This document shows positions 21,649-39,679 of a DNA stretch of 64,000 bases, one piece after another. Within the stretch, counting starts at the first letter, position 1, and each line of letters opens with the position of its first letter. Below the pieces are notes generated by a model. It ran no database searches, was not told the DNA's origin, and saw only the letters and a program-made list of their open reading frames with translations. This DNA is from an uncultured Bacilli bacterium (GTDB lineage: Bacteria; Bacillota_I; Bacilli_A; RF39; UBA660). A program made the translations under genes and the position numbers. The stretch covers positions 929,626 through 993,625 of the forward strand of contig OZ006981.1 of the NCBI GenBank assembly GCA_963931185.1, given 5' to 3'.

Positions 21649-22455
21649 ATGAAAAATAGAACTTTTTTAATTTATATCATATCAATTATTTTTTTATATG
21701 TGTTCAATATTATGTTATTTTTTATCTATACAAGTGATAAATTATATCCATTTAAAAATGATATTAATTGTTACTCGTTTTGGGAATATTCAACACACAA
21801 CGGTTTATTAACAATTTTCATGTTCTTACTTCCTATAGCAATTTCCATTATTACAATTAAGAGTATCAATACGAAAATAAAAGGTTCATACTTTAGGAAT
21901 TATATAATACGAGATAATTATAAAAAACTTATAAAAAAAGAATATTTATTATGTTTGGTAAAAACGATACTTCCTTATGTTTTGATATCAACTACTATTT
22001 TTATATTAGGTTTTTTACTATTTAAGCACGATATTACAAATATTAAATATGCTGATTTATATAGCAATTTTATTTATGATCCTATGTTTAACCCACTTAC
22101 TTGTATTATTTTAGAAACGATCATAAGCATTTTCTTTTTTATACTAATAGTAAATATAGAGTTAATTGTTTACAGATTTGTCAAAAAGCTTGGATTAACT
22201 ATAATTTTCAGCTTCCTTTCATTAAATATTCTAAACTTTATTATTTCATATTTTTTCGAAATTATATCAACAATAATTAAGAATAAATATCTAAATGAGG
22301 CTTTTTATTCATTCAATATTTATCATGGATTTATTGGAAGCAAATATATCATTTTTACTTTTATAATTTTCATTCTTTTATCTACAATCAGTTTTATTTT
22401 TTTAACAAAATTATATAAAAGTAAAGAAAGGATGGTATTGGATTTTGAGCAATAA
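21649..22455 (+). CDS. Polytopic membrane protein (ABC-2-like permease candidate)
   Basis: 268 aa, about 6 hydrophobic helices, in an operon with an ABC ATPase. Confidence 0.6.
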   Translation: MKNRTFLIYIISIIFLYVFNIMLFFIYTSDKLYPFKNDINCYSFWEYSTHNGLLTIFMFLLPIAISIITIKSINTKIKGSYFRNYIIRDNYKKLIKKEYLLCLVKTILPYVLISTTIFILGFLLFKHDITNIKYADLYSNFIYDPMFNPLTCIILETIISIFFFILIVNIELIVYRFVKKLGLTIIFSFLSLNILNFIISYFFEIISTIIKNKYLNEAFYSFNIYHGFIGSKYIIFTFIIFILLSTISFIFLTKLYKSKERMVLDFEQ

Positions 22456-23191
22456 AATAATAAGAATTCTAAGTACTAGAATAGAATATTATGCCCTAAT
22501 TACATATTTGTTTTTTGGAACATTTGCTTTTACAATATCATATGCAGATAATTCATACATAGATATATTATTATCGATGATCAATAATAAAATATTTTTG
22601 GTAGTATTTATGCTACCTTCATTTGTTCTATTTTGGAATATGATTATTAAATATTCAACAAATGATTATCAAACAATAATTAGAATGGGGAAAAGGAAAA
22701 ATTATATTATTTTTTTATCAAAAGAATTAACTAAAGCATCATGTTTATTGTTCTTTCAATATATAGTATTTCAATTGATATGCATCAATCTAACATCGCA
22801 CACAAACATTTTTATATCAAATACTTATAATTATAATGTGAATGATTTTGTTTTATACATTGTTTGTGTTATAAGACTTTTTTTGAATATTATTACAATT
22901 AAATATTTGTTTAGTTTTTTATACTTAAACATCCAAAACAAAGAATATAGCATTTTTCTAATGTTTACTTTATTTATAATTATTTATTTTTGTAATCGAC
23001 TATTCTTTATTAATAGCTTTTTAAATTACATCAACATTGGATATCATTACTATGGAATAGATCTTACTAATAACATTTATGAATTAATAATATCGAACCT
23101 ATTATTTAACTCTATATTATCAATTATTTTAATTATTTTAATGAATAAAAAGATTAAAAAGATAAACTTTTATACTGGAAACAGGAGGTAA
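22445..23191 (+). CDS. Polytopic membrane protein (ABC-2-like permease candidate)
   Basis: 248 aa, about 6 hydrophobic helices. Overlaps the upstream gene by 11 nt. The ATPase gene begins 2 nt after its stop. Confidence 0.6.
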   Translation: MSNKIIRILSTRIEYYALITYLFFGTFAFTISYADNSYIDILLSMINNKIFLVVFMLPSFVLFWNMIIKYSTNDYQTIIRMGKRKNYIIFLSKELTKASCLLFFQYIVFQLICINLTSHTNIFISNTYNYNVNDFVLYIVCVIRLFLNIITIKYLFSFLYLNIQNKEYSIFLMFTLFIIIYFCNRLFFINSFLNYINIGYHYYGIDLTNNIYELIISNLLFNSILSIILIILMNKKIKKINFYTGNRR

Positions 23192-23192
23192 T

Positions 23193-23828
23193 ATGATTAC
23201 AGTTGAAACAAAAAATTTAACAAAAAAAATTGGAAATGAAATAATTTTAAAAGATGTTAATACAAAATTTGAAAACAAGAAGATATATGGTATTGTTGGA
23301 CGAAATGGTTCTGGTAAAACTATGTTTTTAAAAAGTTTATGTGGTTTTTTAACACCAACAAGTGGTACTGTATTAATTAACCAAAAAGATATTTATAAAG
23401 AAGAAATGTTTTCGAATAATGTAGGAATTTCGTTTAGTAATAGTAATTATATAAAAGATCTAACAGGTTTTGAAAATTTAGAATTAATTGCTAACATAAA
23501 AAAACAGATATCTAAAGAAGACATAATTGATGCTTTAAAAAAAGTAAACCTATTAAAAGAAAAAGATAAAAAATATGGTAAATATTCACTTGGAATGAAA
23601 CAAAAACTTGATATAGCACAAGCAATAATGGAAAAACCAGAGATTTTATTACTAGACGAACCATTCAATGGTTTAGATGACGAAAGTGTCAAATTAATTA
23701 AAAAATTAATTATAGACTTAAAAAATAGCGGAAATACAATTATTATTGCAACTCATATAAAAGACGACATTGAAAACTTCTGTGACGAAGTCATTAGATT
23801 CGATATGGGAACTATTGTTAATAAATAA
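23193..23828 (+). CDS. ABC transporter ATP-binding protein
   Basis: Walker A GRNGSGKT, degenerate signature YSLGMKQKL, Walker B ILLLDEP, H-loop ATH. Confidence 0.9.
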   Translation: MITVETKNLTKKIGNEIILKDVNTKFENKKIYGIVGRNGSGKTMFLKSLCGFLTPTSGTVLINQKDIYKEEMFSNNVGISFSNSNYIKDLTGFENLELIANIKKQISKEDIIDALKKVNLLKEKDKKYGKYSLGMKQKLDIAQAIMEKPEILLLDEPFNGLDDESVKLIKKLIIDLKNSGNTIIIATHIKDDIENFCDEVIRFDMGTIVNK

Positions 23829-24090
23829 AAAATTTAAATAAGCTCTTTAATAATTATTATGACATTAAATTTATTGTGGTACTCAAAAAGAAACACCATA
23901 AATATCATTGATAAAAATGATAAAAAAGAATGTAATCTATTGATAGACTACATTCTTTATCCCTGACCATTATTCACCAATTATTTTTTTATAATTTTGA
24001 TATTTTTTTAGTAAATTTTAATAAACTTTAAAATGATAAAAGTCTTATTTTACAGTGTGGGTTAGCCTGTTCAACACTTGGTAAGAACTT

Positions 24091-24129
24091 CCCCCTGAGC
24101 CGTCCCTTAATTGGGACGGTATTTTTTTT
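24091..24129 (+). terminator. Orphan Rho-independent terminator preceded by CCCCCTGAG motif (3' end of an sRNA, or att remnant)
   Basis: CCCCCTGAG (24091-24099), then hairpin CCGTCCC-TTAATT-GGGACGG (24100-24119) plus T8 (24122-24129). The nearest upstream CDS ends ~260 bp away. An upstream hairpin CAGTGT..ACACTT is present, but no convincing promoter was found. Confidence 0.5.
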
Positions 24130-24353
24130 GCCCCAATTTATAAGGGTTTGTAGGGGATCGATATTGCTAAAATAATTTTAGGTACAATTTAGGTACAAAA
24201 AAATATGATTTAAGAATAGTTCATTGAGAAAAAATGCCGAAAGTGGCAAAAATTCTCAATGAATTTTTATATTTTAACAATGATACAGATAAAATATAAA
24301 TGATCCGTATGACTGCAAAATATAACATTATTCCGCAAATGGTATAAAATATA

Positions 24354-24382
24354 TTGACATATTATTCCAGAAACGGTATAAT
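24354..24382 (+). promoter_or_regulatory. Consensus sigma-A promoter of the Fic-kinase operon
   Basis: TTGACA (24354-24359), 17 bp spacer, TATAAT (24377-24382). The spacer/-10 sequence ATTATTCCAGAAACGGTATAAT is a near-duplicate of ATTATTCCGCAAATGGTATAAA immediately upstream. Confidence 0.65.
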
Positions 24383-24403
24383 CTATATATAGAGGTGATA
24401 ACT

Positions 24404-24727
24404 ATGCAAATTAAAGATATGAAAGATGTTATTGATATTGCTAAAGACATTAAAAATCTAACTGAGCAAAAGAAAAATCCAACAAGAGAAGGTATGGAAA
24501 AAGCAATAAAGAGTGTTAGACAACACCTATTATTAGAAACAGAAGTATATGAAGATGCATTATGTGTTGCTAATAAGAGTTCAAAAGTAAATATTGAAAA
24601 TATTGATAATAATGTTCTATACGGAAAACTTGATGATTATAAAACCATATGTTTTGGTTATCTTCTAGATAAGTATGGAAAAGAACAACTTAATGAAATT
24701 ATAAAAGAATATAATTTGGAGGTGTAA
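24404..24727 (+). CDS. Small acidic protein, first gene of Fic-kinase operon, unknown function
   Basis: 107 aa from ATG 24404 (AGAGGTG RBS). No motif recognised. The stop lies 2 nt before the Fic gene start. Confidence 0.6.
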   Translation: MQIKDMKDVIDIAKDIKNLTEQKKNPTREGMEKAIKSVRQHLLLETEVYEDALCVANKSSKVNIENIDNNVLYGKLDDYKTICFGYLLDKYGKEQLNEIIKEYNLEV

Positions 24728-24729
24728 AA

Positions 24730-25665
24730 ATGAAATTTATGTCAATAAAAGAAGCAAGTGAAAAATGGAATATTAGCGAAAGAAGAATTAGACAACTTAT
24801 ACAAGATGGAAGAATTATAGGAGCTGAAAAAATAGGCACTGCATGGAATATTCCTGATGATGCAGGTAAGCCAATTGATAAAAGAGTAAAAGATGAAATT
24901 GAATTTAAAATAGATTTGCCAGAAGATTATTTTAAAAAATTAGATGAAAAACTTGCTAAATTAAATAGTAAAAGACCATTATCTAAAGAAGCAACAGAAT
25001 CATTGCAAAATGCAATTAATCTAGAATGGATTTATAATAGTAATGGAATAGAAGGTAATACATTAACATTAAAAGAAACAAAAGTTGTATTAGAAGGTAT
25101 TACTATAGGAGGTAAGTCTGTAAGAGAACACTTAGAAGTTATAAACCATGAAAATGCTATTGAGTATTTAGAAGAATTAATTGGCTCTAAAAGTGAAATT
25201 TCTGAATGGAATATTAAAGGATTACATCAATTAGTTTTAAAAGGTATTGATGATGAAAATGCAGGAAGATATAGAAATCATGATGTAATTATTAGTGGTG
25301 CACAACATAGACCGCCACAATATATAAAGGTTCCAGAATTAATGGAAAAATTAATAATGAATTATGATGAATGGGACAAATATCATCCAATAGTAAGAGC
25401 AGCATTATTACATGGAGAATTAGTTAAGATCCATCCATTTATTGATGGAAATGGTAGAACATCTAGATTAATAATGAATATGGAGCTAATGAGAAGTGGA
25501 TATGTACCAGTTATTATTAAAAAAGATAATAGATTAAAATATTATGAGGCACTTGATAAGGCACATACAACAGGTGATTACACAGATTTTGTTAAATTGG
25601 TAACAAAAGCAGAAAATGAAATGTTAGATAGATACTTGGAAGTGATTGATAGTGGAAACAAATAG
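24730..25665 (+). CDS. Fic-family protein with N-terminal excisionase/MerR-type HTH (class II, internal inhibitory helix)
   Basis: HTH MSIKEASEKWNISERRIRQLIQDGRIIGAEKIG. Inhibitory motif SNGIEGN (25039-25059, fits [ST]xxxE[GN]). Fic active site HPFIDGNGRTSR (25432-25467). Confidence 0.9.
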   Translation: MKFMSIKEASEKWNISERRIRQLIQDGRIIGAEKIGTAWNIPDDAGKPIDKRVKDEIEFKIDLPEDYFKKLDEKLAKLNSKRPLSKEATESLQNAINLEWIYNSNGIEGNTLTLKETKVVLEGITIGGKSVREHLEVINHENAIEYLEELIGSKSEISEWNIKGLHQLVLKGIDDENAGRYRNHDVIISGAQHRPPQYIKVPELMEKLIMNYDEWDKYHPIVRAALLHGELVKIHPFIDGNGRTSRLIMNMELMRSGYVPVIIKKDNRLKYYEALDKAHTTGDYTDFVKLVTKAENEMLDRYLEVIDSGNK

Positions 25666-26431
25666 TGATAGAATAATTCAGGAATTTTCGTCAGGGCAAA
25701 AAAATGTTGCATTAGTATATAATGAAAAATATGGGAAATGTATTAGAAAAACCAGAAGTGCTAATACATCAACTGCGAGAATAGAAAGAGAAGTAAATAT
25801 TCAAAATGATTTTAATAGTGAATATTATCCTAAAATTTACTATAGTGAAATAAATTCGAATAATATATTAATATATGAAGAATATGTAGAAGGAAACGAT
25901 TTGTTTGAAATATTAGCGGGAAATAATATATATAAAAATAATCAAAAAAAGTGTTTAGAATTATTGCTTGATTTAATAGAAGCGTTAGACTTAATTTGGA
26001 ATAAATCTATTGTTCATAGAGATATAAAACCTAATAATATTAAAATGCGTCCGAATGGGAAACCAGTTATTTTGGATTTAGGAATAGCAAAGTTGCTTGA
26101 CTCTACTGATAATTTAACTACAAGAATGTGGTTTACACCTGGATATGCACCAATTGAACAATTTACTAATAGAATAGATTTAATTGATAAAAGAACAGAT
26201 TTTTTTAGTCTTGGGGTAGTTATTTATGAATTGTTTTTTGGGCAAAGATTATTTTTGTCAAATGAAGAGGTTATCTCCAAAAATCCAAATTTTAATCAAG
26301 CAGGATTTAGTAATACTCAAAAATTTAATTTAATTATATCAAAATTACTGGAAAAACAAATTTACAGACGATACAGAAAATCTATAGATATTGTTAATGA
26401 TGTCAAGAATGCTTTGGAGGAATGTTTATGA
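25646..26431 (+). CDS. Stand-alone Hanks-type Ser/Thr protein kinase domain
   Basis: HRDIKPNN (26015-26038), DLG (26075-26083), GYAPIEQ, DFFSLGVVIYELF. The Gly-rich loop is degenerate (SSGQKNV). Lys candidate in KCIRK. Overlaps the Fic gene by 20 nt (TTG start). Confidence 0.85.
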   Translation: MIVETNSDRIIQEFSSGQKNVALVYNEKYGKCIRKTRSANTSTARIEREVNIQNDFNSEYYPKIYYSEINSNNILIYEEYVEGNDLFEILAGNNIYKNNQKKCLELLLDLIEALDLIWNKSIVHRDIKPNNIKMRPNGKPVILDLGIAKLLDSTDNLTTRMWFTPGYAPIEQFTNRIDLIDKRTDFFSLGVVIYELFFGQRLFLSNEEVISKNPNFNQAGFSNTQKFNLIISKLLEKQIYRRYRKSIDIVNDVKNALEECL

Positions 26432-27660
26432 GTAATAATTTAAAATTATACCATCAATGTGGTTTTAGATCTAAATGGAATTTTGAAGTGTTTCAAGAAG
26501 ATAATATAGGAGATGGTTTTATCTTGTCTCCATATAATATGAAGAAGGAAGAATTATCTAAAATTGAAGATGAAGAATTAGAAAAAAGTTTTTTTGATCC
26601 ACAGTTTTACGCATTAGGTGATTATAGAGAGTCATTTCTTTCTTATAACTTCTTGGATTGCGTCGATACACTAAGTGATTATATAAATGATAGAGATTTC
26701 ATAGCTCAAAAAACAGTGGATTATCAAAATAATCTTTCGGTAGAATACATTACAATACCAACCATAGATTTTGATTTATTAAATACAACAGATGATTTTG
26801 AGTATGTTTACTCTTTAATATCAAGTAATGATTATGAAGGAAATGATAATAATCTAAAAATATTAAATGAAATAATTATAAAACCATTTATAAAAAGAAT
26901 TAAAGAAATAGAAACAAATAAAAAGATTCTACTAACTGTAATTTTTGATGAAAATACTGCAAGAAATAATGATAAGTTTGCAGAACTATTAACTTTAATT
27001 ACAAGTTATGATATTGTTGATGGTATATATATAATTCCAAAATGTTCTAAGTCTTACAAGAGAGTGTCAAATATTCAATTCTTACAAAAAATGATGGAGT
27101 TTATAGATATATTAAAATCAATAAATATGGAAGTAATAGTAGGCAATAGTGATATTGAATCGTTATTATATATAGTAGCAGGAGCAGATGCAGTTACTAT
27201 GGGAAGTTATGAAAATCTAAGACATTACGACGGTACAAGATTTATAAAAAATGAAGGAACTCCTAGATCTCCTGTACCAAGACTATTTAGTTATAAATTA
27301 TTACAATGGATTGACTATACTTATTTATATCCAATTAGTCAAAACATTGATATGAATGATTTATTTGAATGTAATAAGTATTATGAAATGACTGTACCTG
27401 AAGGGTATAAATGGCACTTTAGCAAATCAGAACCTTATAAACACTATATGATGAGCTATTCAAATTTAATAAAGAAATTACCACAAGAACAACATGAAAA
27501 AATAGAATATGTAAACCAATTGTTTGAAGAAGCAAAAAAAGCTGGTTCAGAGTTATTAAATTGTGGTATAATATTAGATGATAATAGTGGTGGTGCACAT
27601 ATATCACAATGGCAAACTGCATTACTACAATTTGCCAATAAAAAGAAAAAAGGTGATTAG
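26428..27660 (+). CDS. Hypothetical 410-aa protein, unknown function
   Basis: ATGA overlap with the kinase stop, GGAGG 8 nt upstream. No motif I can name (N-terminus LYHQCGFRSKWNFEVF...GDGFILSP...FFDPQFY). Confidence 0.7.
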   Translation: MSNNLKLYHQCGFRSKWNFEVFQEDNIGDGFILSPYNMKKEELSKIEDEELEKSFFDPQFYALGDYRESFLSYNFLDCVDTLSDYINDRDFIAQKTVDYQNNLSVEYITIPTIDFDLLNTTDDFEYVYSLISSNDYEGNDNNLKILNEIIIKPFIKRIKEIETNKKILLTVIFDENTARNNDKFAELLTLITSYDIVDGIYIIPKCSKSYKRVSNIQFLQKMMEFIDILKSINMEVIVGNSDIESLLYIVAGADAVTMGSYENLRHYDGTRFIKNEGTPRSPVPRLFSYKLLQWIDYTYLYPISQNIDMNDLFECNKYYEMTVPEGYKWHFSKSEPYKHYMMSYSNLIKKLPQEQHEKIEYVNQLFEEAKKAGSELLNCGIILDDNSGGAHISQWQTALLQFANKKKKGD

Positions 27661-27661
27661 T

Positions 27662-28126
27662 ATGTTTCAAACTGAGAGAGATTTAGTTATTTCTTTGATT
27701 GATATGCTTGAAAATAATAAAGTTAAAATAAAAAATATAAAAGATTTCTTTATTTTACAAGAAGTTGATGGCATGATAGGAAGACCAGATATTCTCTTAA
27801 AAAGTAAAACTAACACTAAGATAATTACAATAGAAGTTAAATTAAAAAATTGGAAAAGAGCCTTACAACAAGCCTATAAGTATAGAAGTTTTTCTGATAT
27901 AGCTTATATATGCATGGATGAAAAAAATGTAAAACCGGCATTAGAAAATCTAGATTTGTTTAAAAAATGTAATATTGGATTACTAACCATAAATAGCAAG
28001 AATAAAATTAAAATTTATTATGAGCCTACTATGGATCGTGCATTTGTTGAAAACTTACGTGATGTTGCAGAATCTAAATTTAATACTAAATATGGTAGTG
28101 ATATAATGACAACAAAAATAGCTTAG
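27662..28126 (+). CDS. Small PD-(D/E)xK (restriction-endonuclease-fold) protein
   Basis: 154 aa from ATG 27662 (2 nt after the upstream stop). GRPDILL (Asp 27788-27790) and ITIEVKLK (E-x-K 27833-27841) followed by ALQQAYKY fit the D...ExK..Q pattern. The longer track ORF (27578) overlaps the previous gene and is rejected. Confidence 0.6.
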   Translation: MFQTERDLVISLIDMLENNKVKIKNIKDFFILQEVDGMIGRPDILLKSKTNTKIITIEVKLKNWKRALQQAYKYRSFSDIAYICMDEKNVKPALENLDLFKKCNIGLLTINSKNKIKIYYEPTMDRAFVENLRDVAESKFNTKYGSDIMTTKIA

Positions 28127-28926
28127 TCATCTTCTAAGCTATCTATGACAGAAACTACAGAGTCGAGGGCAGTACTAAACATATGTGAATATGTATTTAG
28201 TGTTTCCTCGATTTTTGTATGTCCTAAATATTTTGCAACTAATGTAACATTAGCACCATTGTTAATAAGTAATGATGCACATGAATGTCTAAAATCATGA
28301 ATCCTAATGACTTTCAAACCAGCAAGATTTGCTAGTTTAGTTCTTCTAAGATATACATTAGAATCAGCTATAGGTTTAGCATCGGATACTACAAAGAAAT
28401 CATCATTGAATCCATAATATTCTTTTTTATCCTGCTCATAGAGCATTTTAAGATCATTTAACAAGACTTTAGTAATAGGTACTATTCTTCTGCTATCTCT
28501 TGTCTTAGTATCCGAAAATTCAAACTTAACACGGTTATTTCTTTGGGTTATCTGTTTATTAACAGATAATACTTTTTTATCAAAATAAATATCTTTCCAA
28601 GTAAGTCCTTTTAATTCTCCTTTACGTAGTCCACAGTAATATAATATTTCAAATACGCATTTCCATCTTAGATCTTCTTCATAAGAAATAAACTTTTTGA
28701 ACTCATCATAAGTATAATAAGCCATTTCCTTTCTACGCTCATTTGGATCTTGAAACTTTGTCATTTTATTATATACTGCTTGAAAGTTTAAGTTATGCCA
28801 TTTAACACCAAAATTTAAAATAGATTTAAGAAATTTATAAATATCATTTTTATATCTAAGAGATATATTAAGTTTATTTATCTCTCGTTTCCATTGTTCA
28901 AATTGCATAATATTAAAATTTTTCAC
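28123..28926 (-). CDS. Tyrosine recombinase/phage integrase, short form (N-terminal arm-binding region apparently missing)
   Basis: Catalytic-domain motifs GLRKGELKGLTWKDI, RIHDFRHSCASLLI, GHTKIEETLNTYSHM (R..HxxR..Y). Only 267 aa, and no further coding sequence upstream. Confidence 0.8.
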   Translation of the reverse strand: MKNFNIMQFEQWKREINKLNISLRYKNDIYKFLKSILNFGVKWHNLNFQAVYNKMTKFQDPNERRKEMAYYTYDEFKKFISYEEDLRWKCVFEILYYCGLRKGELKGLTWKDIYFDKKVLSVNKQITQRNNRVKFEFSDTKTRDSRRIVPITKVLLNDLKMLYEQDKKEYYGFNDDFFVVSDAKPIADSNVYLRRTKLANLAGLKVIRIHDFRHSCASLLINNGANVTLVAKYLGHTKIEETLNTYSHMFSTALDSVVSVIDSLEDD

Positions 28927-29035
28927 TTTAACAGGAAAGAAGCATTCGATATATTTTTTTATAATTTTAAATTACGAAAATATCGTAATTGAAGAGTCTG
29001 GTAAACTTTAATAAGAAAATAGAAGGAGATTGAAA

Positions 29036-29299
29036 TTGAAAAGTAAAACAATAATAAAAGCAGATGAGATGTTAGAAATTCTAAATAAGCAGTGGGCTAC
29101 AATACAAGATATAATGAAAATAGGTGCGTGAGGTAGAAATAAAGCAAGAAACATAAAAAACGAAATAGAAAGAAATATAATAGATCAAGGATTAAAACTT
29201 CCTAATAATTTAGTTCCGATGGAAAAGGTAATTGAATACTTTAAAATTAATCTAGATTTTTTAGTAACAATTAATAAATCAAAAAATGGCGAAATATAA
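29036..29299 (+). pseudogene. Xis/AlpA-like small DNA-binding protein interrupted by in-frame TGA
   Basis: GAAGGAG RBS, TTG 29036. Translation is LKSKTIIKADEMLEILNKQWATIQDIMKIGA-TGA(29129-29131)-GRNKARNIKNEIERNIIDQGLKLPNNLVPMEKVIEYFKI... A Cys or Trp codon is expected at the stop position. Confidence 0.45.
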
Positions 29300-30098
29300 T
29301 AAAGAAAAATATTATTACTTTATGTTAAAATCTAATTTCTTTGATAGTGATGTAATAAGATATCTACAACAAAAACAAAATGGATATGAAATTATCATCT
29401 TATATTTTAAATTAATATTTAAAGCTATAAATAAGTATGGTAAATTAATTAAAAAAATAGGTAAGAAAAATATACCATATACAATAGAAGAATTGTCAAT
29501 TGAAACAGGACATTCTATAGATTTAGTAAAAGAAAGTATTGATTACTTTTTAGATACTGAAATGATAGAAAAAAGTGGTAATACATATTACATAGAAGAT
29601 GCATTAGTATTAACAAATCAAACTACTGTAGGTGCAATGGAAATGAGAGAATATCGAGCTAAAAATAGTAGGGATAAATGTAAGAAAAATTGTAAGCCAA
29701 AAGGTAAGACAAATATAGATATAAATAATAATAAATTAGAACTTATAACTAATAAAAAAGAATTAATAAAAATAGATGATAGTAAATATCAAGAAATAAT
29801 AGATTATTTTAATTTTAAAACAAACTCAAAATATGTATTAATAGATGAATATAAAAAATTAATTAATAATATCTTAAATAAATATAAAATTGAAGATATA
29901 AAAATAGTAATTGATAAAAAAACTTCAGAATGGATTAATAATCCTAAAATGAGTTCATATCTTAGACCAGAAACATTATTAGGTTCTAAATTTGAAAGAT
30001 ATTTATATCAAAAAAATGAACCAAAAACAATAAAAGATATAACATTAGCAGATATCCAAAAAGCAAAAGCAATAAAGGATAATAAGGAAAATGGATAA
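29286..30098 (+). CDS. Phage replisome organizer (N-terminal organizer domain plus conserved phage C-terminal domain)
   Basis: YYYFMLKSNFFDSDVIRYL...GYEIIILYFKL...YTIEELSIETGHSIDLVKESIDYF. C-terminus YQEIIDYFNFKTNSKY...YLRPETLLGSKFERYL. Confidence 0.8.
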   Translation: MAKYNKEKYYYFMLKSNFFDSDVIRYLQQKQNGYEIIILYFKLIFKAINKYGKLIKKIGKKNIPYTIEELSIETGHSIDLVKESIDYFLDTEMIEKSGNTYYIEDALVLTNQTTVGAMEMREYRAKNSRDKCKKNCKPKGKTNIDINNNKLELITNKKELIKIDDSKYQEIIDYFNFKTNSKYVLIDEYKKLINNILNKYKIEDIKIVIDKKTSEWINNPKMSSYLRPETLLGSKFERYLYQKNEPKTIKDITLADIQKAKAIKDNKENG

Positions 30099-31315: not shown

Positions 31316-31479
31316 AGACACCTCCAATTTGTTGTATTAATCACTTAAATATTAAAAAAATACAAGTTTTATTTAACAAATTTTAAATTTTGTTGGCTTA
31401 ATTAGGTGTCAAAAGTCAAATTTTGTCAATTTTTATGTTATAATTGTAATTGATAGGAAATGCTTTGGAGGTAGTAGAT

Positions 31480-34400
31480 ATGTCAATAAGTGAATTGTTA
31501 GAAGAATTTAGAAAAATTTTCGGTAATGAAAGAGATAAAGGGACTGCATTTGAAAAGTTAATAAAAATGTATTTAGAAAACGAACCAAAATATATGGCTC
31601 TTTTAACAAATGTTTGGATGTGGAATGAATTTCCTTATAGAGGAAATATTGGTGATACGGGAATAGATTTAGTTGCAAAAACAATTGAGGGAGAATATTG
31701 GGCTATTCAATGTAAATTTTATGCTGAAGAACATGAAATAACAAAAGGTGATGTAGATACATTTTTGGCAACATCATCAAAATATTTTTATGTAGATGAT
31801 AAGCAAGAAAAATTTTCCTATAGATTAATTGCTTCTACTACAGATCATTATAATCATGTAGCAGAAGATACATTAGCAAATCAAAATCCGCATGTTGGAA
31901 GAATAGGATTGAATGATTTGTTAGAGTCTCAAATTGATTGGAAAAAATACTCTTTAATGAGCGAAAAAGTTTATTTAATTGATAAAAAGAAACCTAGGGA
32001 ACACCAAAAAACAGCAATATCTAAAGTTGTGGAAGGATTTAAAAGTAACGATAGAGGAAAGCTTATAATGGCTTGTGGTACAGGGAAAACTTATACAAGT
32101 TTAAGAATTGCAGAAGAACAATTAAATGGAAAAGGGAATGTTTTATTTTTAGTTCCATCAATTGCATTAGCAAGTCAAACATTAACAGAATGGTCTGCGC
32201 AATGTAGATATACATTTAATGCTTGTGTTGTTTGTAGTGATAATAAAGCATCAAAAGGTGATAATTCAGTTGATCTAGGAATACCATCTACTACTGATGT
32301 AGAAAGATTAAATGAATGGTATATTGATGCTGTTAATAATAACCGTGAAATGAATTTTATTTTTTCTACTTATCAATCCATTGATGTCGTATCAAAATTT
32401 TCAAAAAAATCAAATGTTGAATTTGATTTGATTATATGTGATGAAGCACATAGGACTACGGGAGTTACATTAAGTGATGAAGATGAAAGTTCATTTGTAA
32501 AGGTTCATGATAATGATTTTATAAAAGCAAAGAAAAGATTATATATGACGGCAACTCCAAAAATTTATGGTGATGCTGCTAAAGGAAAAGCAACAGAAGT
32601 AAATGCTGAATTGTGTTCTATGGATGATGAACAAAAATTTGGTAAGGAGTTTTATAAGTTATCATTTAGTGATGCTGTAAAACAAGATTTATTAACTGAC
32701 TATAAAGTTCTTGTATTAGCTATCGATGAAGAATATGTAAAAATGGAATTACAAGATTTACTTAAAGATGAAAATCATGAATTAAGACTTGATGACTCTG
32801 TTAAAATAATGGGATGTTGGAATGGATTGTCAAAAATATCTATGTTTGATGAACAACAAAACTTTTTGTCAGATCCTAATCCTATGAAGAGAGCAGTAGC
32901 ATTTTGTAATAGAATTATTGATTCACAAAAACTTGTAGAGATGTTTAAAATTATTCAAGATCATGTTAAAGGAGAATATAGAACAGATAAAGATAAATTA
33001 GTGAATGTTGATATTAAGCATGTTGATGGTTCATTTAATTCTTTAGAAAAAAAAGATAGAATAAATTGGCTAAAAGATGATATAGAAGATGGGAAATGTA
33101 GAATATTAACCAATGCAAGATGCTTATCAGAGGGAGTTGATGTTCCAGCTCTAGATGCAGTAATGTTTTTGAATCCTAGAAGTAGTATGACTGATATTAT
33201 ACAATCAGTAGGTAGAGTAATGAGAAAATCTGAAGGAAAAAAATATGGATATGTTATTTTGCCAATAGGAGTATCAGCTTCAGAAGATCCAGATGAGGCG
33301 TTAAATAACAATGAAAAATATAAATTAGTTTGGGAAGTTCTTCAAGCATTGAGAGCGCATGATGATAGATTTAACAATACAATTAATAAAATTGATTTGA
33401 ACAAAAAGAAACCTGATCAAATTGAAATAATTGGAATCGGATATGATCATAAAGAAGATCAAGATACAGGAACTAAGACGGTAAAAGTAAAAGATGATAT
33501 TAAGAAAAAAGTTCAATTAACATTGGATTTAAAAACTTTTGATGAGTGGAAAGATTCAATATATGCGAAGATGGTAAAACGCGTTGGTTCAAGAATGTAT
33601 TGGGAAATGTGGGCAAAAGATGTCGCTGAAATTGCAACATCTCATATGAAAAAAATAAGAAAATTAATTGATACAGAAGCTCCAGAGATTAAGAAAGCTA
33701 TCGATGAATTTTTATTAGGATTGAGAAAAAACTTAAATAATTCAATTACTCAAGAAGATGCAATTGAAATGTTAGCACAACATATGATTACTAAACCTGT
33801 GTTTAATGCATTATTTGAAGATTATGAGTTTGTAAATAATAACCCAGTTTCGAAAACAATGCAAAAAATGATAGATATTCTTGATAAACAAGTACCAGAA
33901 GAAGAAAAAGAAAAATTAAACAGTTTTTATGAATCTGTTAAAGAGAGAGCTAACGGAATAGACAATGCAGCTGGTAAACAAAAAATAATTCTTGAATTAT
34001 ATGAAAAATTCTTTAAAACAGCTTTACCAAAAGAAGTTGAAAAATTAGGTATAGTTTATACACCAACAGAATGCGTTGATTTTATTATAAACAGTGTTGA
34101 ATATCTTATGAAAAAAGAATTTGGTAAGAGTTTATCGGATCATGGTGTTCATATTATAGATGGTTTTACAGGAACAGGAACTTTTATTGTAAGACTACTT
34201 CAAAGCGGAGTAATCAAACCAGAAGATTTATTATATAAATATACGAATGATATTCATGCAAATGAAATAGTTTTATTAGCATATTATATTGCAGCAATTA
34301 ATATTGAAGAAACTTTCCATGAATTAAATGGAAATAAAGAATATATTCCATTTGATGGTATAGTATTAACTGATACTTTTCAATTATATGAAGATACGGA

Positions 34401-36228
34401 TGAAAATGAATGGACAAAAAATATTAATGAATTAACACTACCACAAAATAGTGAAAGAGCATTAAAACAAAGAGAATTACCAATAACAGTATGTATAGGA
34501 AATCCTCCATATTCTGTTGGACAAAAAAGTCAAAATGATAATGCACAAAACTTGACTTATCCTAAATTGGAGAGTCGAATCGCTGAAACATATGTTGAAA
34601 ATTCAAAAACAAACATGAATAAGGCATTATATGATGCATATATCAAAGCATTTAGATGGGCTTCTGATAGAATAAAAAATGATGGAATAGTTAGTTTTAT
34701 TACAAACGGTTCGTTTATAGATGGTGTTGCAACAGCAGGATTTAGAAAAAGTTTAGTAGATGAATTTACATCTATATACATATTTGATCTACGAGGAAAT
34801 GCTAGAACATCAGGTGAGCAACGCAAAAAAGAGGGTGGAGGTATATTCAATAGTGGAAGTAGAACTCCAGTTGCAATTACGTGTCTAATAAAAAATGAAA
34901 AAAGACAAAAAGATAATTATATTCATTATTATGATATTGGTGATTATTTAAATAGAGAACAAAAATTAAATATTATAAATAAGTATAATAGTATTGAAAA
35001 TATTAAATGGAAAATCATAAAACCAGATGCTAATAATGATTGGATAAATAAAACTAATAATCAATATAAAAATTTTATAGCCTTGTCAGATGAAAAAAAT
35101 AGTATTTTTGAATTGAGAACAAGTGGTGTGGTTTCATCTAGAGATTCTTGGGTTTTTAATTATAATAGAGATAAGTTGTTAAAAAACATATTTATTATGA
35201 CACAAACATATAATGAAGAATTAAAAAGAATAATAGATAAAAAATCCTCTGATTTTAAGAATATAATAAATTATGATTCCACAAAAATAAGTTGGTCTCG
35301 AGCATTAATTAATTCCCTTAAAAATAATATTGAAAAAGTGGTAGAAGAAAAAAATGTTTTACAAGCTTTATATAGGCCTTTTCAAGCAATGAATTTTTAT
35401 TATTCAAGAGATTTTAATGAGTGTGTTTATAAAAATGATAAAATAATAAAAGGTGAAAATATCTCTATTGTTACCTTAGGTGTGGGATCTAAAAAAGAGT
35501 TTTCGTGCATTATTACCGATAAAATTACCAGTTTTGATACAATGGAAAAAGGAAATGTATTTTCAAGATATATTTATGATTTAGAAGAAGAAAATACTTT
35601 ATTCATAAATGAAAACATAAAAAAAGATTCTATTTCAGATAATATTCAAAAATTATTTATTTCAAAATATGAAAAACAAATTAATAAAGATGAAATATTT
35701 TATTATGTGTATGGTATTTTACATTCAAAAGATTATAAATACACTTTTGAATCTGATTTGAAAAAATCATTACCTAGAATACCCTTGGTTGATTCTTATA
35801 CAGACTTTTTGGCATTTAGTAAGGGTGGGAAAAAACTTGCTGATTTACATTTAAACTATGAAAAAATAGAACCATATACTAAGTGTAGAATTATGGTATA
35901 TCCGAATGCTAATTATAATGTTATAAAGATGAAGTTTGGGCAAAATAAAAACAAAAATATTATTGAATATAATGATAAAATTACTATTTCAAATATTCCA
36001 GAAAAAGCATATGAATATGTGGTTAATGGAAAGTCAGCGATTGAATGGATTATGGAAAGATATGCAATTACTACAGACAGTAAAAGTGGAATAGTTAATA
36101 ATCCAAATGATTGGTGTAAAGAAATAAATGATGATATGTATATTTATAATTTATTATTAAGAATTATTAATGTTTCTGTAAAAACTGTCGATATAGTAAA
36201 CTCATTACCAAAAATAAATTTTGAATAG
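31480..36228 (+). CDS. Type ISP restriction-modification enzyme (Mrr-like nuclease, SF2 ATPase/translocase, N6-adenine methyltransferase, TRD)
   Basis: N-terminal PD-(D/E)xK GDTGIDLVAK...YWAIQCKFY. Walker A ACGTGKTY. DEAH (32440-32451). Helicase motif VI QSVGRVMR. MTase motifs DGFTGTGTF and NPPY (34501-34512). Long C-terminal target-recognition region. Size and order match LlaGI/LlaBIII-type enzymes. Confidence 0.9.
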   Translation: MSISELLEEFRKIFGNERDKGTAFEKLIKMYLENEPKYMALLTNVWMWNEFPYRGNIGDTGIDLVAKTIEGEYWAIQCKFYAEEHEITKGDVDTFLATSSKYFYVDDKQEKFSYRLIASTTDHYNHVAEDTLANQNPHVGRIGLNDLLESQIDWKKYSLMSEKVYLIDKKKPREHQKTAISKVVEGFKSNDRGKLIMACGTGKTYTSLRIAEEQLNGKGNVLFLVPSIALASQTLTEWSAQCRYTFNACVVCSDNKASKGDNSVDLGIPSTTDVERLNEWYIDAVNNNREMNFIFSTYQSIDVVSKFSKKSNVEFDLIICDEAHRTTGVTLSDEDESSFVKVHDNDFIKAKKRLYMTATPKIYGDAAKGKATEVNAELCSMDDEQKFGKEFYKLSFSDAVKQDLLTDYKVLVLAIDEEYVKMELQDLLKDENHELRLDDSVKIMGCWNGLSKISMFDEQQNFLSDPNPMKRAVAFCNRIIDSQKLVEMFKIIQDHVKGEYRTDKDKLVNVDIKHVDGSFNSLEKKDRINWLKDDIEDGKCRILTNARCLSEGVDVPALDAVMFLNPRSSMTDIIQSVGRVMRKSEGKKYGYVILPIGVSASEDPDEALNNNEKYKLVWEVLQALRAHDDRFNNTINKIDLNKKKPDQIEIIGIGYDHKEDQDTGTKTVKVKDDIKKKVQLTLDLKTFDEWKDSIYAKMVKRVGSRMYWEMWAKDVAEIATSHMKKIRKLIDTEAPEIKKAIDEFLLGLRKNLNNSITQEDAIEMLAQHMITKPVFNALFEDYEFVNNNPVSKTMQKMIDILDKQVPEEEKEKLNSFYESVKERANGIDNAAGKQKIILELYEKFFKTALPKEVEKLGIVYTPTECVDFIINSVEYLMKKEFGKSLSDHGVHIIDGFTGTGTFIVRLLQSGVIKPEDLLYKYTNDIHANEIVLLAYYIAAINIEETFHELNGNKEYIPFDGIVLTDTFQLYEDTDENEWTKNINELTLPQNSERALKQRELPITVCIGNPPYSVGQKSQNDNAQNLTYPKLESRIAETYVENSKTNMNKALYDAYIKAFRWASDRIKNDGIVSFITNGSFIDGVATAGFRKSLVDEFTSIYIFDLRGNARTSGEQRKKEGGGIFNSGSRTPVAITCLIKNEKRQKDNYIHYYDIGDYLNREQKLNIINKYNSIENIKWKIIKPDANNDWINKTNNQYKNFIALSDEKNSIFELRTSGVVSSRDSWVFNYNRDKLLKNIFIMTQTYNEELKRIIDKKSSDFKNIINYDSTKISWSRALINSLKNNIEKVVEEKNVLQALYRPFQAMNFYYSRDFNECVYKNDKIIKGENISIVTLGVGSKKEFSCIITDKITSFDTMEKGNVFSRYIYDLEEENTLFINENIKKDSISDNIQKLFISKYEKQINKDEIFYYVYGILHSKDYKYTFESDLKKSLPRIPLVDSYTDFLAFSKGGKKLADLHLNYEKIEPYTKCRIMVYPNANYNVIKMKFGQNKNKNIIEYNDKITISNIPEKAYEYVVNGKSAIEWIMERYAITTDSKSGIVNNPNDWCKEINDDMYIYNLLLRIINVSVKTVDIVNSLPKINFE

Positions 36229-36235
36229 GTGAGAT

Positions 36236-37839
36236 ATGATTTATGTATTAATTGGAGTTATAGGTATTTTGTTAATTATTATTTATGAAGAAAAACAAAA
36301 TAATAAAGATCTGTTAAAAAAATATGAAGAAAAGTTAAAAGCTTTAGAAAAACAAAACGAAATTTTAAATAACAATAAAATAGAAATTGTTTCTTTGAAA
36401 AACGAGATACAAGCATCTGAAAATAAAATTAAAGAATTAAACGAAGAACTTAGTAATTATACGCAAATAAAAAATGATTCATTAATTTTAAATGTTACAG
36501 ATGAAGATGAAATAGCTAGATATTCTGAAGATAAGGTTACAGCTGAACAAAAAATATCTGAAACTAAATCTTCAGAATTGAATGCTGAAAAACAAGAAAT
36601 ATATGAATTAATTGAAAAAACTAACTCTAATATTTTTATAACAGGTAAGGCTGGAACTGGTAAGAGTTATTTGCTTAAATATTTTAGAAAAAATACAATA
36701 AAAAAGTTTTATATTGTGCTCCAACTGGTATAGCTGCATTAAACATTGATGGTGTAACATTGCATTCTGCTTTTGGATGGAATAATTTGATTGATGAACA
36801 CGAAATAAAACTATCTTCAAATAAACTTTCCTTATTAAGAAGTATAGATACTTTGATTATAGATGAAATATCAATGGTTAGAGTAGATGTATTTAATCAA
36901 ATAGATAAAATATTGAAAAAAGCTAATAATAATTCAAAACCATTTGGTGGAAAACAAGTAATTGTATTTGGTGATTTATTTCAATTGCCTCCGGTTGCAA
37001 CAAGAGAAGAAAATGAGTTCTTTACAGATAAGTATGGAGGAATATTTTTCTTTAATGCCCCTGCATATAAAGATGGTCATTTTGAATTTAGAGAGATAAC
37101 AGAAATATTTAGACAAACGGATAAAGAATTTATTGATATATTAAATGATATTAGAGTTGGGAAAATAAATGAAGAACAAATAAAATCATTGAATCAACAT
37201 TATGTTACAGAAGTTCCGCGAAGAGTTGTGCAAGTTGTTCCTATGAAAAATGAGGCTAATAATATTAATAGTGAAAATTTAAATAAAATTAATGGTCAAG
37301 AATTTGAATATCGAGCTAATGTACTTGTTGGTAAAGATATCATAAAGGAAACTGATTTTCCATGCGATTTTGATTTGAAATTAAAAGTTGGATCTTTGGT
37401 AATGATGATAACTAATGACCAAGAACACAAGAGATGGGTTAATGGAACTTTGGGAATTATATCAGGATTATCTCCGACAATGGTTAAAGTAACAATAAAT
37501 GGTACTGATTTTGAAATATCTCCAACAACATTTAATAAATATAAATGTGAATATGATAGAGAAAACAAAACTCTCAAATATATTGTAGAAGCAAGCGTAA
37601 GTCAGTTTCCGTTGATATTGGCTTATGCAATTACTATTCATAAGTCTCAGGGAATGACATATCAACAAATAGCATGTAATTTAGAAAGCTGCTTTGCACC
37701 TGGGCAAGCATATGTAGCATTGTCTAGATGTGCAAATTATGATAAATTGTATTTAACTCAAAAAATAGATGCTAGTTCAATAATTACAGATAATGTAGTA
37801 GTTAATTTTTATAAGGATATAACTAAGAAAGGAAAATAA
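36236..37839 (+). pseudogene. Membrane-anchored PIF1/RecD-like (AAA_30) helicase, split by a frameshift in an A6 tract
   Basis: TM helix MIYVLIGVIGILLIIIY, coiled coil, Walker A GKAGTGKS (36644-36667). The frame then breaks at A6 (36700-36705). One extra A would read TIKKVLYCAPTGIAALNIDGVTLHSAFGW and join the 36760-37839 ORF (IIDEISMV, GDLFQLPPV, ITIHKSQGMTY, YVALSR). Confidence 0.8.
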
Positions 37840-37840
37840 T

Positions 37841-39679
37841 ATGATAAGAGAAACAAAACAGAAACAAATCTCTGAAGTATTTTCAAATGATAGAGATTTA
37901 ATATATGAAATACCTAAGTATCAAAGAAAATATACTTGGGGTATAAATGAATGGGAATTATTATTTAATGATGTAATTGATAATGATAACGGATATTTTT
38001 TGGGTTCTACAATATGTGTAGCTAAACCAGGTAGTATATATGATGCAATTGTATCTGAAGTAATTGATGGCCAACAAAGAATGACAACTTTATCAATTTT
38101 ATTAACAGTATTGTATGCAAAAATAGCAGAACACAGAAATGAATTAGATGAAGATGAATTTATAAATTTAAATATAATTAAGAAACAATTGGCTTATAAA
38201 AAAGATGGAAAATATTATCCTAAATTAAGATTACAAATTCAAGATAATAATCAAGCTGATTTTAATAGTTTATTATATCGTCATGGCATAATAGACGAGG
38301 GAACTACACCATTAAATGCTGGAAATAGAAGAATATATAAAGCTTATAAGCACTTTGAAAAATTAGTAGATGGTTTTTTATCTTCTGATTATGCTGAAAG
38401 TAATGGCTTAAAATCAGATACAGAAGTAAAAACATTATTTAATTTGGTAAAAAGATTTAATAGTGCAGTATTAGTGGTCATCGAAGTTGATACGCATAAA
38501 GATGCATATATGTTATTTGAATCCTTAAATAATAGAGGAGTTCCTCTTACAGCTATCGATTTAATTAAAAATCTTATTATTTCAGTATCAGAAAAAGATA
38601 ATAAGTCAAATGAATGTTACGAAGTTTGGAGAGAAATCCAGAATAATTTGCAAGAAGAATATGTGGTGCAAGAAAGATTTTTTAGACAATATTATAATGC
38701 TTTTAGAGAAGAATTAAATGAACCTTTTATCTTGCCGGAATCAACCAAAAAATATCCATTAGCGTATTTAGCAACAAAAACTACATTAATGGATATATAT
38801 GAAAAATTAATAAAAAAAGATTATCAAAAATATTTGAACGATATATATTTAGCTTCTAAAAAATATGCAATTATTATAAATAATAGTGAAGAAGAAACAG
38901 CTTATGCTCCAGAATTAAAAGATTTAGAAAGAATTCAAGGAGCTCCGGGATATTTATTATTGTTGTATTTAGAGTTAAATAAAGAACAATTAAATATATC
39001 TGATAGTTTAATGAAAGATATTATAGTATTATTAATTAAATTCTTTGCCAGAAGAAATTTAACAGATATGCCTAATACAAGAGATTTAACCAAAATATTT
39101 ATGGATATAATTTCAGACATAAAATCAAATCGAGAATATATTTATGAAATTATCAAAAACAAATTGATAAGTGTGTCTGCTTTTGATGAACTTTTTGCAA
39201 CAAAACTTAAAGGACCGATTTATGATGATAATGACATGGCAACAAGATTTATTTTATGCTATATGGAATCTAAACATCAAACAAAAGAAATTTATACTGA
39301 TTTATGGTCTAGAGATAAGAGTAATAAATATATTTGGACAATTGAGCATATCTTTCCAGAAGGACAGAATATTCCTCAAGGATGGATTGACATGATTGCT
39401 AATGGTAATAAAGATTTAGCATATGAATATTTGAATAACTATGTTCATACAATTGGAAATTTAACTATTACAGGTTACAATTCAACATTAAGTAATTTAG
39501 ATTTTGATAAAAAGAAAAATAGAAAAAATTCTGAAGGTAAAGATGTTGGCTATAGAAATGGTTTGTATCTTAATGAAGATGTAGTAGCAGCAGAAAAATG
39601 GACAATTGATAGAATTAAGACTAGAACTGAAAAATTAGTTAAAGAAGTTATTGATGAATTAGATATGAATAAAAGATAA
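37841..39679 (+). CDS. GmrSD-family Type IV restriction enzyme-like protein (DUF262 plus DUF1524), copy 1
   Basis: IPKYQRKYTW, DGQQR (38066-38080), C-terminal HNH-like EHIFPE...HTIGNLTITGYNSTLSN. Starts 2 nt after the helicase stop. Confidence 0.85.
   Translation: MIRETKQKQISEVFSNDRDLIYEIPKYQRKYTWGINEWELLFNDVIDNDNGYFLGSTICVAKPGSIYDAIVSEVIDGQQRMTTLSILLTVLYAKIAEHRNELDEDEFINLNIIKKQLAYKKDGKYYPKLRLQIQDNNQADFNSLLYRHGIIDEGTTPLNAGNRRIYKAYKHFEKLVDGFLSSDYAESNGLKSDTEVKTLFNLVKRFNSAVLVVIEVDTHKDAYMLFESLNNRGVPLTAIDLIKNLIISVSEKDNKSNECYEVWREIQNNLQEEYVVQERFFRQYYNAFREELNEPFILPESTKKYPLAYLATKTTLMDIYEKLIKKDYQKYLNDIYLASKKYAIIINNSEEETAYAPELKDLERIQGAPGYLLLLYLELNKEQLNISDSLMKDIIVLLIKFFARRNLTDMPNTRDLTKIFMDIISDIKSNREYIYEIIKNKLISVSAFDELFATKLKGPIYDDNDMATRFILCYMESKHQTKEIYTDLWSRDKSNKYIWTIEHIFPEGQNIPQGWIDMIANGNKDLAYEYLNNYVHTIGNLTITGYNSTLSNLDFDKKKNRKNSEGKDVGYRNGLYLNEDVVAAEKWTIDRIKTRTEKLVKEVIDELDMNKR

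Follow-up and report, generated by a model that had tools for sequence, protein, structure and literature searches.

Several described systems come close to parts of the locus reported here. Staphylococcus Stk2 and Escherichia coli PD-T4-6 are single-gene kinase defence systems, often with extra sensor domains, and PrrC, from the prr locus, is an accessory defence gene embedded in a Type I restriction-modification (R-M) operon. The TerY-P triad, reportedly described by Gao and colleagues in 2020, is said to combine TerY/vWA, a PP2C phosphatase and a Ser/Thr kinase, and integrase-proximal defence hotspots of P2/P4-like elements were reportedly found by Rousset and colleagues in 2022. The window analysed here is a stretch of 64,000 nucleotides (nt) from contig OZ006981.1 of an uncultured Bacilli bacterium. 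It contains a tight operon at 24404-28126 on the plus strand, with genes for a small protein (A), a helix-turn-helix (HTH) Fic protein (B), a Hanks-type Ser/Thr kinase (C), a TIM-barrel protein (D) and a PD-(D/E)xK nuclease-fold protein (E). The locus probably consists of two recombined modules, an A-Fic anchor and a swappable kinase-D-E cassette, and the kinase-D-E triad is a good candidate for an undescribed defence system against phages or other mobile genetic elements.

One genome per GTDB species was scanned with a profile built from D homologues, giving 67 loci (loci are numbered below with the prefix L), and the neighbouring open reading frames (ORFs) were then searched using the five proteins of the window. 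The linkage counts refer to 66 species-level genomes with D. Because scans of loci by pattern favour relatives that keep two or three peptide motifs, the counts are lower bounds. The kinase gene was immediately upstream of D in 55/56 loci with enough sequence, and E was immediately downstream of D in 65/65, co-directional in 61 and convergent in 4, with intergenic distances mostly from -4 to +8 nt. The kinase exception was L068 (3157-8009), where hsdR, the C-terminal third of D, E and hsdS followed each other, the kinase gene and most of D having been deleted. Bacillota, Bacteroidota, Chloroflexota, Ignavibacteria, Proteobacteria and two archaea carried the triad. Its distribution was patchy: the lineages were scattered, and each species representative had a single locus. 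Fic was not found in the triad neighbourhood in the 65 other genome loci, and was adjacent in the survey in L007 alone. Seven metagenomic contexts of D homologues (35-61% identity) had the same triad of kinase, D and small protein, again with no Fic. The triad is an ancient unit, and it moves as a whole among phyla.

The second line of evidence came from close relatives of the element itself. By blastn against L080-L084, the segment 25638-28113 (plus strand), which holds the triad, was recognized as swapped cargo. The homology breakpoints lay at 25637-25661, in the last Fic codons, and at 28104-28114, just past the integrase stop, with 86-90% identity in the left arm (24121-25637/25661) and 91-97% in the right arm (28104/28114-28958). 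This segment is exchangeable, since both arms were conserved in the relatives while the cargo between them differed. In L080, L081 and L082 (7272-9275, 7278-9239 and 1587-3548, respectively) Fic was followed by an OLD-like ATPase-Toprim protein of 653-667 amino acids (aa), with matches to PADLOC PtuA (8e-30) and in the Toprim region (4e-19). In L083-L085 the cargo was three small ORFs (255, 70 and 143 aa), none of them matching PADLOC. The Fic-kinase-D-E arrangement was kept in L007 (95% DNA identity) and in L077 and L078 (99%). Two modules could thus be proposed. One, the slot anchor, would comprise the promoter, gene A and the HTH-Fic gene, and is present in all related elements; another, the exchangeable cargo, would be the self-contained set of kinase, TIM-barrel D and PD-(D/E)xK nuclease E. 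From this arrangement the locus is read as the integrase-proximal cargo slot of a decayed prophage-like integrative element within a defence island.

In the window, the two modules are joined very closely. Five co-directional plus-strand ORFs were confirmed by ORF listing and translation, and the coordinates and tight junctions claimed in the original prediction, all gaps of at most 2 nt or overlaps, were correct. A and B were separated by 2 nt (24727/24730), C and D shared an ATGA overlap (-4 nt, 26428-26431), and D and E were separated by 1 nt (27660/27662). The overlap of B and C was 20 nt if C starts at TTG 25646, and 14 nt if it starts at GTG 25652, which is the more likely start because its GGAAGTGA ribosome-binding site lies at the better spacing and because the gene called in L077 is likewise 259 aa long. 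A Shine-Dalgarno-like sequence was found ahead of every one of the five starts. Within 23800-29300 the sole 12/12 sigma-70 match was TTGACA-17-TATAAT (24354-24382), and no terminator-like site inside the operon was revealed by the terminator scan. The five ORFs are not chance ones, because conserved homologues exist for each. These signals support co-transcription and translational coupling of the five genes in the source genome.

Such a structure could mean that all five genes are one system, with the nuclease under the joint control of AMPylation by Fic and phosphorylation by the kinase. The single uninterrupted transcription unit, the overlapping B/C and C/D frames, and the retention of Fic-kinase-D-E in three relatives at 95-99% identity (L007, L077 and L078) are what such a system would predict, but the triad had no Fic nearby in the other 65 genome loci and the seven metagenomic contexts, A-Fic was combined with unrelated cargo at sharp homology breakpoints, and A was deleted in L007. 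A five-gene system is thus very unlikely. The claim that the five genes form a single functional unit could not be upheld, since the set was confined to relatives of at least 95% DNA identity (L007, L077 and L078), one of which has lost A, and since A-Fic also occurred with other cargo. Conservation as a unit held for the kinase-D-E subset and failed for the five-gene set. The accompanying idea, a sensor or modifier combined with a nuclease effector, remains reasonable for the kinase-D-E triad.

Gene C (25652-26431, plus strand) encodes a minimal Hanks-type Ser/Thr kinase of 259 aa, or 261 aa from TTG 25646. It is a bare Pkinase domain (Pfam 6.9e-29, 101.5 bits against a cut-off of 31.7), and the stand-alone Hanks kinase with HRD/DLG core seen in the original prediction was recovered with its catalytic residues invariant. 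The HRDIKPNN and DLG motifs were intact, and the VAIK lysine, the alpha-C glutamate, HRDxKxxN, a DFG-type loop, and the APE glutamate with its arginine partner, which together define a Hanks-type kinase, were all present. Among the triad kinases, K35, E49, HRD124-126, K128, N131, D144, G146, E171, D185 and R242 were kept in 61-62/62, and the glycine loop was reduced to a conserved G17-Q18-K19. In addition, C matched the PADLOC PD-T4-6 models (4.2e-31) and a PHROG serine-threonine kinase family (8.8e-33).

Gene E (27662-28126, plus strand; 154 aa) encodes a stand-alone PD-(D/E)xK, or restriction-endonuclease-like, protein, identified by alignment, AlphaFold2 and Foldseek. Its motif is GRPD...IEVK. 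E5, E34, G40, P42-D43, E58-x-K60 and Q70 were kept in 70-73/73 E sequences, and D43 of GRPD together with E58-V-K60 was invariant in 73/73. The AlphaFold2 model (pLDDT 89) had a strand order fitting the PD-(D/E)xK core, that is, an alpha-beta-beta-beta-alpha-beta core with Asp on strand 2 and (D/E)xK on strand 3. The best Foldseek match was 3dnx (SPO1766; 6.6e-6, TM 0.64), followed by Can2, BamHI, HindIII and Hjc. The fold proposed for E from its sequence was therefore confirmed, with D43, E58 and K60 invariant and both structural methods in agreement. 3dnx has been treated as a PD-(D/E)xK domain of unknown function near the Hjc and RLE nucleases (PMC4838377). Sub-threshold matches of E were NCBIfam sce7726 (23.2 bits against a cut-off of 70) and PDDEXK_9 (E 0.07). 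Both the kinase and the nuclease active sites are under purifying selection.

Gene D (26428-27660, plus strand) encodes the 410-aa protein for which no motif could be named in the original prediction, and no family was found for it in Pfam, NCBIfam (E<=0.1), PADLOC or PHROGs. The structure prediction and search proposed for this protein gave a confident (beta/alpha)8 TIM barrel with C-terminal helices (AlphaFold2 pLDDT 91, pTM 0.92), in which eight main strands alternate with helices. All top Foldseek matches were TIM barrels, and only generic ones. Against the PDB they had E-values of 1e-3 or worse and TM scores of 0.3-0.5, and included ribulose-phosphate epimerase (RPE), triosephosphate isomerase (TIM), HpcH aldolase and GH10 xylanases, and the BFVD viral library held nothing better than generic TIM barrels. 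Assignment of D as a tRNA-guanine transglycosylase (TGT) was rejected, the viral Foldseek matches being weak and not significant. PDB sequence searches with D and E, both single-sequence and profile, gave nothing useful, and 51 distant D relatives searched against Pfam and NCBIfam produced no family bridging to D. A HMMER profile search of 1.84 billion cluster representatives found 975 members of the D family at E<=1e-3 (clusters at 50% identity) and 645 at E<=1e-10, nearly all of about 390-410 aa. By tblastn, D had no match in 50,697 phage and 72,556 plasmid records.

Active sites of TIM barrels lie at or just after the barrel strands. About 30 residues of D were invariant, polar and aromatic, and mostly placed at the C-terminal ends of the barrel strands. 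Those in the barrel were H9, Q10, G12, S34, P35, D57, Q59, I110, P111, G199, Y201, K211, G239, E244, G259, Y261, E262, N263 and R265, and further ones in the C-terminal part were R285, W329, H339, H391 and W395. On the model, this pattern of conservation looks enzyme-like.

With such a protein between kinase and nuclease, a restriction-like chemistry could be considered, in which D modifies DNA or a nucleotide (as a base- or sugar-phosphate-modifying or glycosidase-type enzyme), E cuts the marked or unmarked DNA and the kinase only tunes the process. The invariant residues at the strand ends, the phosphate-binding barrels and weak viral TGT matches among the Foldseek neighbours of D, and the position of the triad inside Type I R-M operons would all suit this explanation. 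It is nevertheless quite unlikely. D had no significant similarity to DNA-modifying TIM barrels (TGT/DpdA, Endo IV, TatD), its best Foldseek E-value being about 1e-3, and the kinase was conserved and linked as strictly as D and E, with PP2C added in some variants. This strict conservation and linkage, together with the PP2C variants, argues that phosphorylation is a core step and not an accessory one.

The genomic surroundings of the triad were then informative for its role. In 15/67 genome loci hsdR was directly upstream and/or hsdS directly downstream of it, as in a Type I R-M operon, and in the Chloroflexota locus L063 the flanks were reversed, with hsdS upstream and hsdR downstream. Other loci adjoined integrases or large serine recombinases. 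The survey of co-occurrence and defence islands suggested earlier was positive in this respect for kinase, D and E, which were linked and partly lay within Type I R-M, and negative for A-Fic, which was linked to the triad in close relatives only. The defence reading is preferred because of the embedding in R-M operons, the carriage by prophages and plasmids, and the slot shared with an OLD-like nuclease.

Distant relatives on plasmids were reached through E only and then checked by hhalign. Plasmid pPNAP03 of Polaromonas naphthalenivorans CJ2, a further culturable carrier of the triad, had the permuted order E-kinase-D, with D confirmed at 98.8%. On Priestia megaterium p6_CACC119 (L088 4277-6310, minus strand), a 677-aa protein annotated as serine/threonine kinase was convergent to an E-like gene, and its residues 357-668 aligned to D 73-392 (88.8%, E 2.5e-6), for which reason it is a probable kinase-D fusion. 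Arthrobacter and Kineococcus plasmids carried a kinase, a protein of 457-465 aa and a convergent nuclease with a winged helix-turn-helix (wHTH), denoted E', which was confirmed at 97.3%; the D-like protein of Arthrobacter gave a non-significant 7% against D and was left unconfirmed. The actinobacterial plasmid versions of the nuclease were annotated as 'BadM/Rrf2 family transcriptional regulator', which is consistent with a wHTH insertion in the nuclease. Another variant was the divergent branch L069-L072, where the nuclease was about 220 aa long with an insertion between strands and was convergent to kinase-D. In all four of these loci (4/4) a PP2C phosphatase was co-transcribed with the nuclease, for example in L070 (4265-5587, minus strand). 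Culturable strains with the triad included Parabacteroides gordonii DSM 23371, Bacteroides timonensis AP1, Flavobacterium potami and F. fluviatile.

Carriage on plasmids, including those of Polaromonas, Priestia, Arthrobacter and Kineococcus, could also be expected if the triad were an addiction or toxin-antitoxin (TA)-like stabiliser of mobile elements, with E as the toxin and D and/or the kinase restraining it. Adjacent integrases or recombinases, and a small nuclease paired with tightly coupled partners, agree with this as well. Against it, recurrent insertion between hsdR and hsdS (15/67), as well as the sharing of one slot with an OLD-family nuclease, is what defence cargo typically shows, and three conserved enzymes exceed the needs of a simple TA pair. 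A TA role is unlikely as the whole explanation, and the TA and defence roles are compatible with each other.

A few loci had core metabolic flanks (L004, L016-L019 and L076), and the best structural match of E, 3dnx, is a small protein of unknown function. From this side, the triad could be a housekeeping signalling or repair module with no role in conflict, made of a kinase-regulated metabolic TIM-barrel enzyme and a repair nuclease. The patchy phyletic spread, which includes archaea, the carriage on prophages, plasmids and R-M operons, and the degraded copy in L068 make this most improbable.

Under the defence reading, the kinase would be the switch, turned on by an infection cue as in Stk2-type kinases. 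It would phosphorylate its obligate partner D, or a D-E complex, and this phosphorylation would release or activate the small nuclease E. E would then cut nucleic acid and stop phage replication, possibly at a cost to the cell, and in some lineages the PP2C phosphatase would reset the switch. The triad would in this case be a defence cassette of several genes, in which a kinase serves as switch and a nuclease as effector, and which contains a new TIM-barrel family. We infer the defence role, the partners of phosphorylation, the substrate of the nuclease and the function of D, be it enzymatic or that of a regulatory scaffold. A fuller version is put forward tentatively, its chance being somewhat short of even, namely that the triad is an unnamed and widespread immune system in which the Hanks kinase, opposed by PP2C in some lineages, gates the PD-(D/E)xK effector via a new TIM-barrel family that either makes or senses a phosphorylated small molecule, or is a phospho-regulated inhibitor of the nuclease.

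Several points weigh against the defence reading and the two-module division. A few triad loci, such as L004 and L076, were among housekeeping genes, and in IMG/VR the triad was on one contig only. D had no recognisable catalytic signature, its nearest folds being the sugar-phosphate TIM barrels (RPE, TIM and HpcH aldolase), and the kinase-D fusion comes from one protein, with an hhalign value of 88.8% over D residues 73-392 only. Because of the tight B/C overlap, Fic and the triad may still interact functionally to some degree in this lineage. As for novelty, no described system of this composition was found, in accordance with the original prediction, in PADLOC-DB v2 (2023), Pfam, NCBIfam, PHROGs or the literature searched, which was not exhaustive. 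The literature on sce7725/7726, on kinase with TIM-barrel defence, on PD-T4-6, on Hanks-type kinases in phage defence and on hsdR/hsdS with a kinase had no description of the triad.

In the anchor module, gene A (24404-24727, plus strand; 107 aa) belongs to a narrow family found only in Bacilli, with 45 homologue clusters at >=65% identity. In 6/6 loci examined (L080-L085, for which three A homologues were looked up) A was followed after 2 nt by an HTH-Fic gene of 306-307 aa. No match to A was found in Pfam, PADLOC, NCBIfam, PHROGs or the PDB by single-sequence and profile searches. L007 had no gene A, as an in-frame deletion joins A codons 1-3 (MQI) to Fic codon 7 with the same promoter and ribosome-binding site. 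Gene A is therefore not required for tolerating the Fic gene and is dispensable in L007. A FicA/VbhA-type antitoxin role for A was rejected, since A has no (S/T)xxxE(G/N), the Fic protein already contains an inhibitory helix, and Fic is retained in L007 although A is lost.

Gene B (24730-25665, plus strand; 311 aa) had matches in Pfam, PADLOC, PHROG and the PDB. Its HTH is of the excisionase/MerR type (residues 3-40; Pfam HTH_17 9e-5), with a PHROG excisionase match to residues 2-58 (9e-11). The Fic domain (Pfam 3.4e-23, 82.7 bits against a cut-off of 24) carries an intact HPFIDGNGRTSR motif and, upstream of it, the auto-inhibitory motif SNGIEGN. Both had been pointed out before, and the Pfam Fic and FICD matches bear them out. 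The closest solved relative was human FICD (1.4e-40), with the inhibitory motif aligned. HxFx(D/E)GNGRxxR and an N-terminal (S/T)xxxE(G/N) thus occur in one chain, as in class II (FICD-like) Fic proteins. The PADLOC run proposed for the locus was only partly productive: Fic alone matched named entries, PDC-S04 (1.2e-37) and SoFic (6.5e-36, failing the SoFic equivalog cut-off), C gave kinase-domain matches, and no PADLOC-DB v2 model matched D or E.

The operon promoter with its repeats (24327-24388, plus strand) was located by the promoter scan and as direct-repeat family D1, and the promoter was kept in L007. Two 28-nt direct repeats (ATTATTCCnnAAAnGGTATAA...), at 24327-24354 and 24361-24388 and with a spacing of 34 nt, lie on either side of the -35 box, and the -10 box is covered by them. 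Their layout resembles that of an operator, to which the HTH of the Fic protein may bind. Autoregulation of the promoter by the Fic HTH through these repeats is probable on this layout, because B has an excisionase-type HTH and the repeats lie at the promoter. The A-Fic pair may also have a role in the element's own biology.

For the ends of the element, a terminator-like hairpin at 24099-24120 (plus strand, terminator scan) closes the upstream host region, and the DNA common to L007 and L081-L084 began directly after it by blastn, at 24121-24124. The conserved non-coding left arm (24121-24353, plus strand; repeat finder, 86-90% identity in L007 and L080-L084) contains a tandem perfect 11-mer, TTTAGGTACAA, twice at 24177-24198, and a stem-loop at 24215-24268 with a 16-bp stem, which had a compensatory change in L007 (GAGAA/TTCTC to GAAGA/TCTTC). 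By its position the left arm may be an attL/arm-site region. The 11-mer repeat and stem-loop may be integrase arm sites, or else a small structured RNA or terminator, and they had no match in Rfam. Rfam and tRNA scans of the window revealed nothing explaining the integration target, and a search of the window for attR, as a copy of the left-end sequence, returned AT-rich chance matches only. In several relatives the element was directly downstream of recG.

On the right side, the conserved arm contains a tyrosine integrase remnant (28123-28926, minus strand; Pfam Phage_integrase 1.1e-28) of 267 aa, compared with 348 aa in L077. A hairpin at 28116-28144, found by terminator scan and in the sequence, lies across the convergent stops of E and the integrase gene and is probably a bidirectional terminator. 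In L077, E was followed by the 348-aa integrase, an S24 (cI-like) repressor, a cro-like gene, a replisome organiser and an HNH gene. When L077 and L007 were compared with the window by blastn, a deletion or recombination breakpoint was located at 28946-28958, across which the identity to L077 fell from 99% to 76%. Relative to L077 (compared region 3428-5718), about 1.5 kb was missing from the window, namely the integrase N-terminus, the S24 cI-like repressor and the cro-like gene. The element is a decayed or recombinant prophage remnant.

The surrounding region had been called defence-rich and scarred by mobile elements, and this description was accurate. Besides the shortened integrase gene, the remnant of a phage replisome organiser is present, and downstream there are a Type ISP R-M enzyme, a PIF1 helicase in two pieces and GmrSD. 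The Type ISP enzyme, a single polypeptide (31450-36228, 1592 aa), has Mrr_cat_2, helicase, ISP coupler and Type_ISP_C regions and matched PADLOC REase_MTase_IIG with an E-value of 0. The PIF1/RecD-like helicase is divided into two ORFs (36236-36733, 165 aa, and 36760-37839, 359 aa), probably a frameshifted or interrupted gene, and is directly followed by the GmrSD Type IV restriction enzyme (37841-39679). Further away, a 903-aa protein (42215-44926) has a region similar to the exonuclease/PHP part of PolC-type DNA polymerase III (E 4e-10), and a 411-aa metallo-beta-lactamase-fold protein (45719-46954) is similar to RNase J (E 3e-11). Genes upstream of the element in the window were housekeeping ones. 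Directly upstream of it, at 21649-23828, an ABC ATPase (211 aa) is encoded together with two membrane proteins (268 and 248 aa) of low complexity and very high hydrophobicity, an arrangement resembling an exporter of the ABC-2 type or an immunity transporter.

Should the triad prove to be a defence system, it would add a phosphorylation-controlled nuclease module to the prokaryotic immune repertoire. The triad also defines a new TIM-barrel family, with about 1000 clusters at 50% identity and no Pfam or NCBIfam model. The triad is compact (2.5 kb) and present in culturable strains, and its natural variants with PP2C, kinase-D fusion or wHTH-nuclease supply mechanistic hypotheses. The slot from Fic to integrase can also serve as a discovery hotspot for more cargo in low-GC Bacilli of the gut and other metagenomes. 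For annotation, the locus is a reminder that independent modules can be brought together by recombination into one tightly coupled operon.

Compared with known systems, none of the named ones could accommodate the locus. Like Stk2 and PD-T4-6, C is a Ser/Thr kinase of the Hanks type found in defence or mobile surroundings. It differs from them in consisting of the catalytic domain alone, with its glycine loop reduced to G-Q-K, and in its obligate linkage to D and E. It was not assigned to PD-T4-6, a stand-alone kinase, in view of its D and E neighbours and because the similarity is that of a generic kinase domain. Assignment as MADS Mad6 was also rejected, with NF047741 scoring 71.7 bits against 460 and no other mad component in the operon, where the HTH match to mad1 had an E-value of 0.02.

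With TerY-P the triad shares the form of a three-gene cassette around a kinase, and the logic of a PP2C phosphatase appears in its divergent branch. Here, however, the kinase is accompanied by a new TIM barrel and a PD-(D/E)xK protein, and neither the window nor most of the loci contain PP2C. No vWA/TerY domain was present in A-E and PP2C was restricted to L069-L072, for which reasons the triad was not counted as TerY-P. B resembles SoFic, PDC-S04 and FICD in its Fic motif and N-terminal inhibitory (S/T)xxxE(G/N) helix. It is unlike SoFic in having an N-terminal excisionase-type HTH, in lacking the SoFic C-terminal part and in having the small partner A upstream in relatives. The candidate SoFic was dropped for B, as NF046030 gave 34.8 bits against 550, the PADLOC SoFic match covered positions 29-272 of 361, and the PDB SoFic match had an E-value of 4e-5 over 40 residues.

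E has the same fold as 3dnx/SPO1766, archaeal Hjc and R2 RLE, and the same E...PD...ExK...Q motif, but differs from these small PD-(D/E)xK nucleases in having no sequence-level family membership. It was not taken as sce7726, the partner of sce7725, given 23.2 bits against 70 and no NCBIfam match for D. D and E were also compared with P4 beta/gop, which have a similar size pattern and are adjacent to int, and this candidate was discarded with 0.1% in hhalign for both pairs and no PADLOC matches.

The position between hsdR and hsdS in 15/67 loci recalls PrrC, while the components of the triad are unrelated to PrrC/RloC and most triad loci are not linked to R-M. With the P2/P4 hotspots the locus has in common conserved flanks beside int and interchangeable cargo, here an OLD-like nuclease, the kinase triad or unknown ORFs. 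It is distinguished from them by its occurrence in low-GC uncultured Bacilli, by a different element and by the HTH-Fic anchor of the slot.

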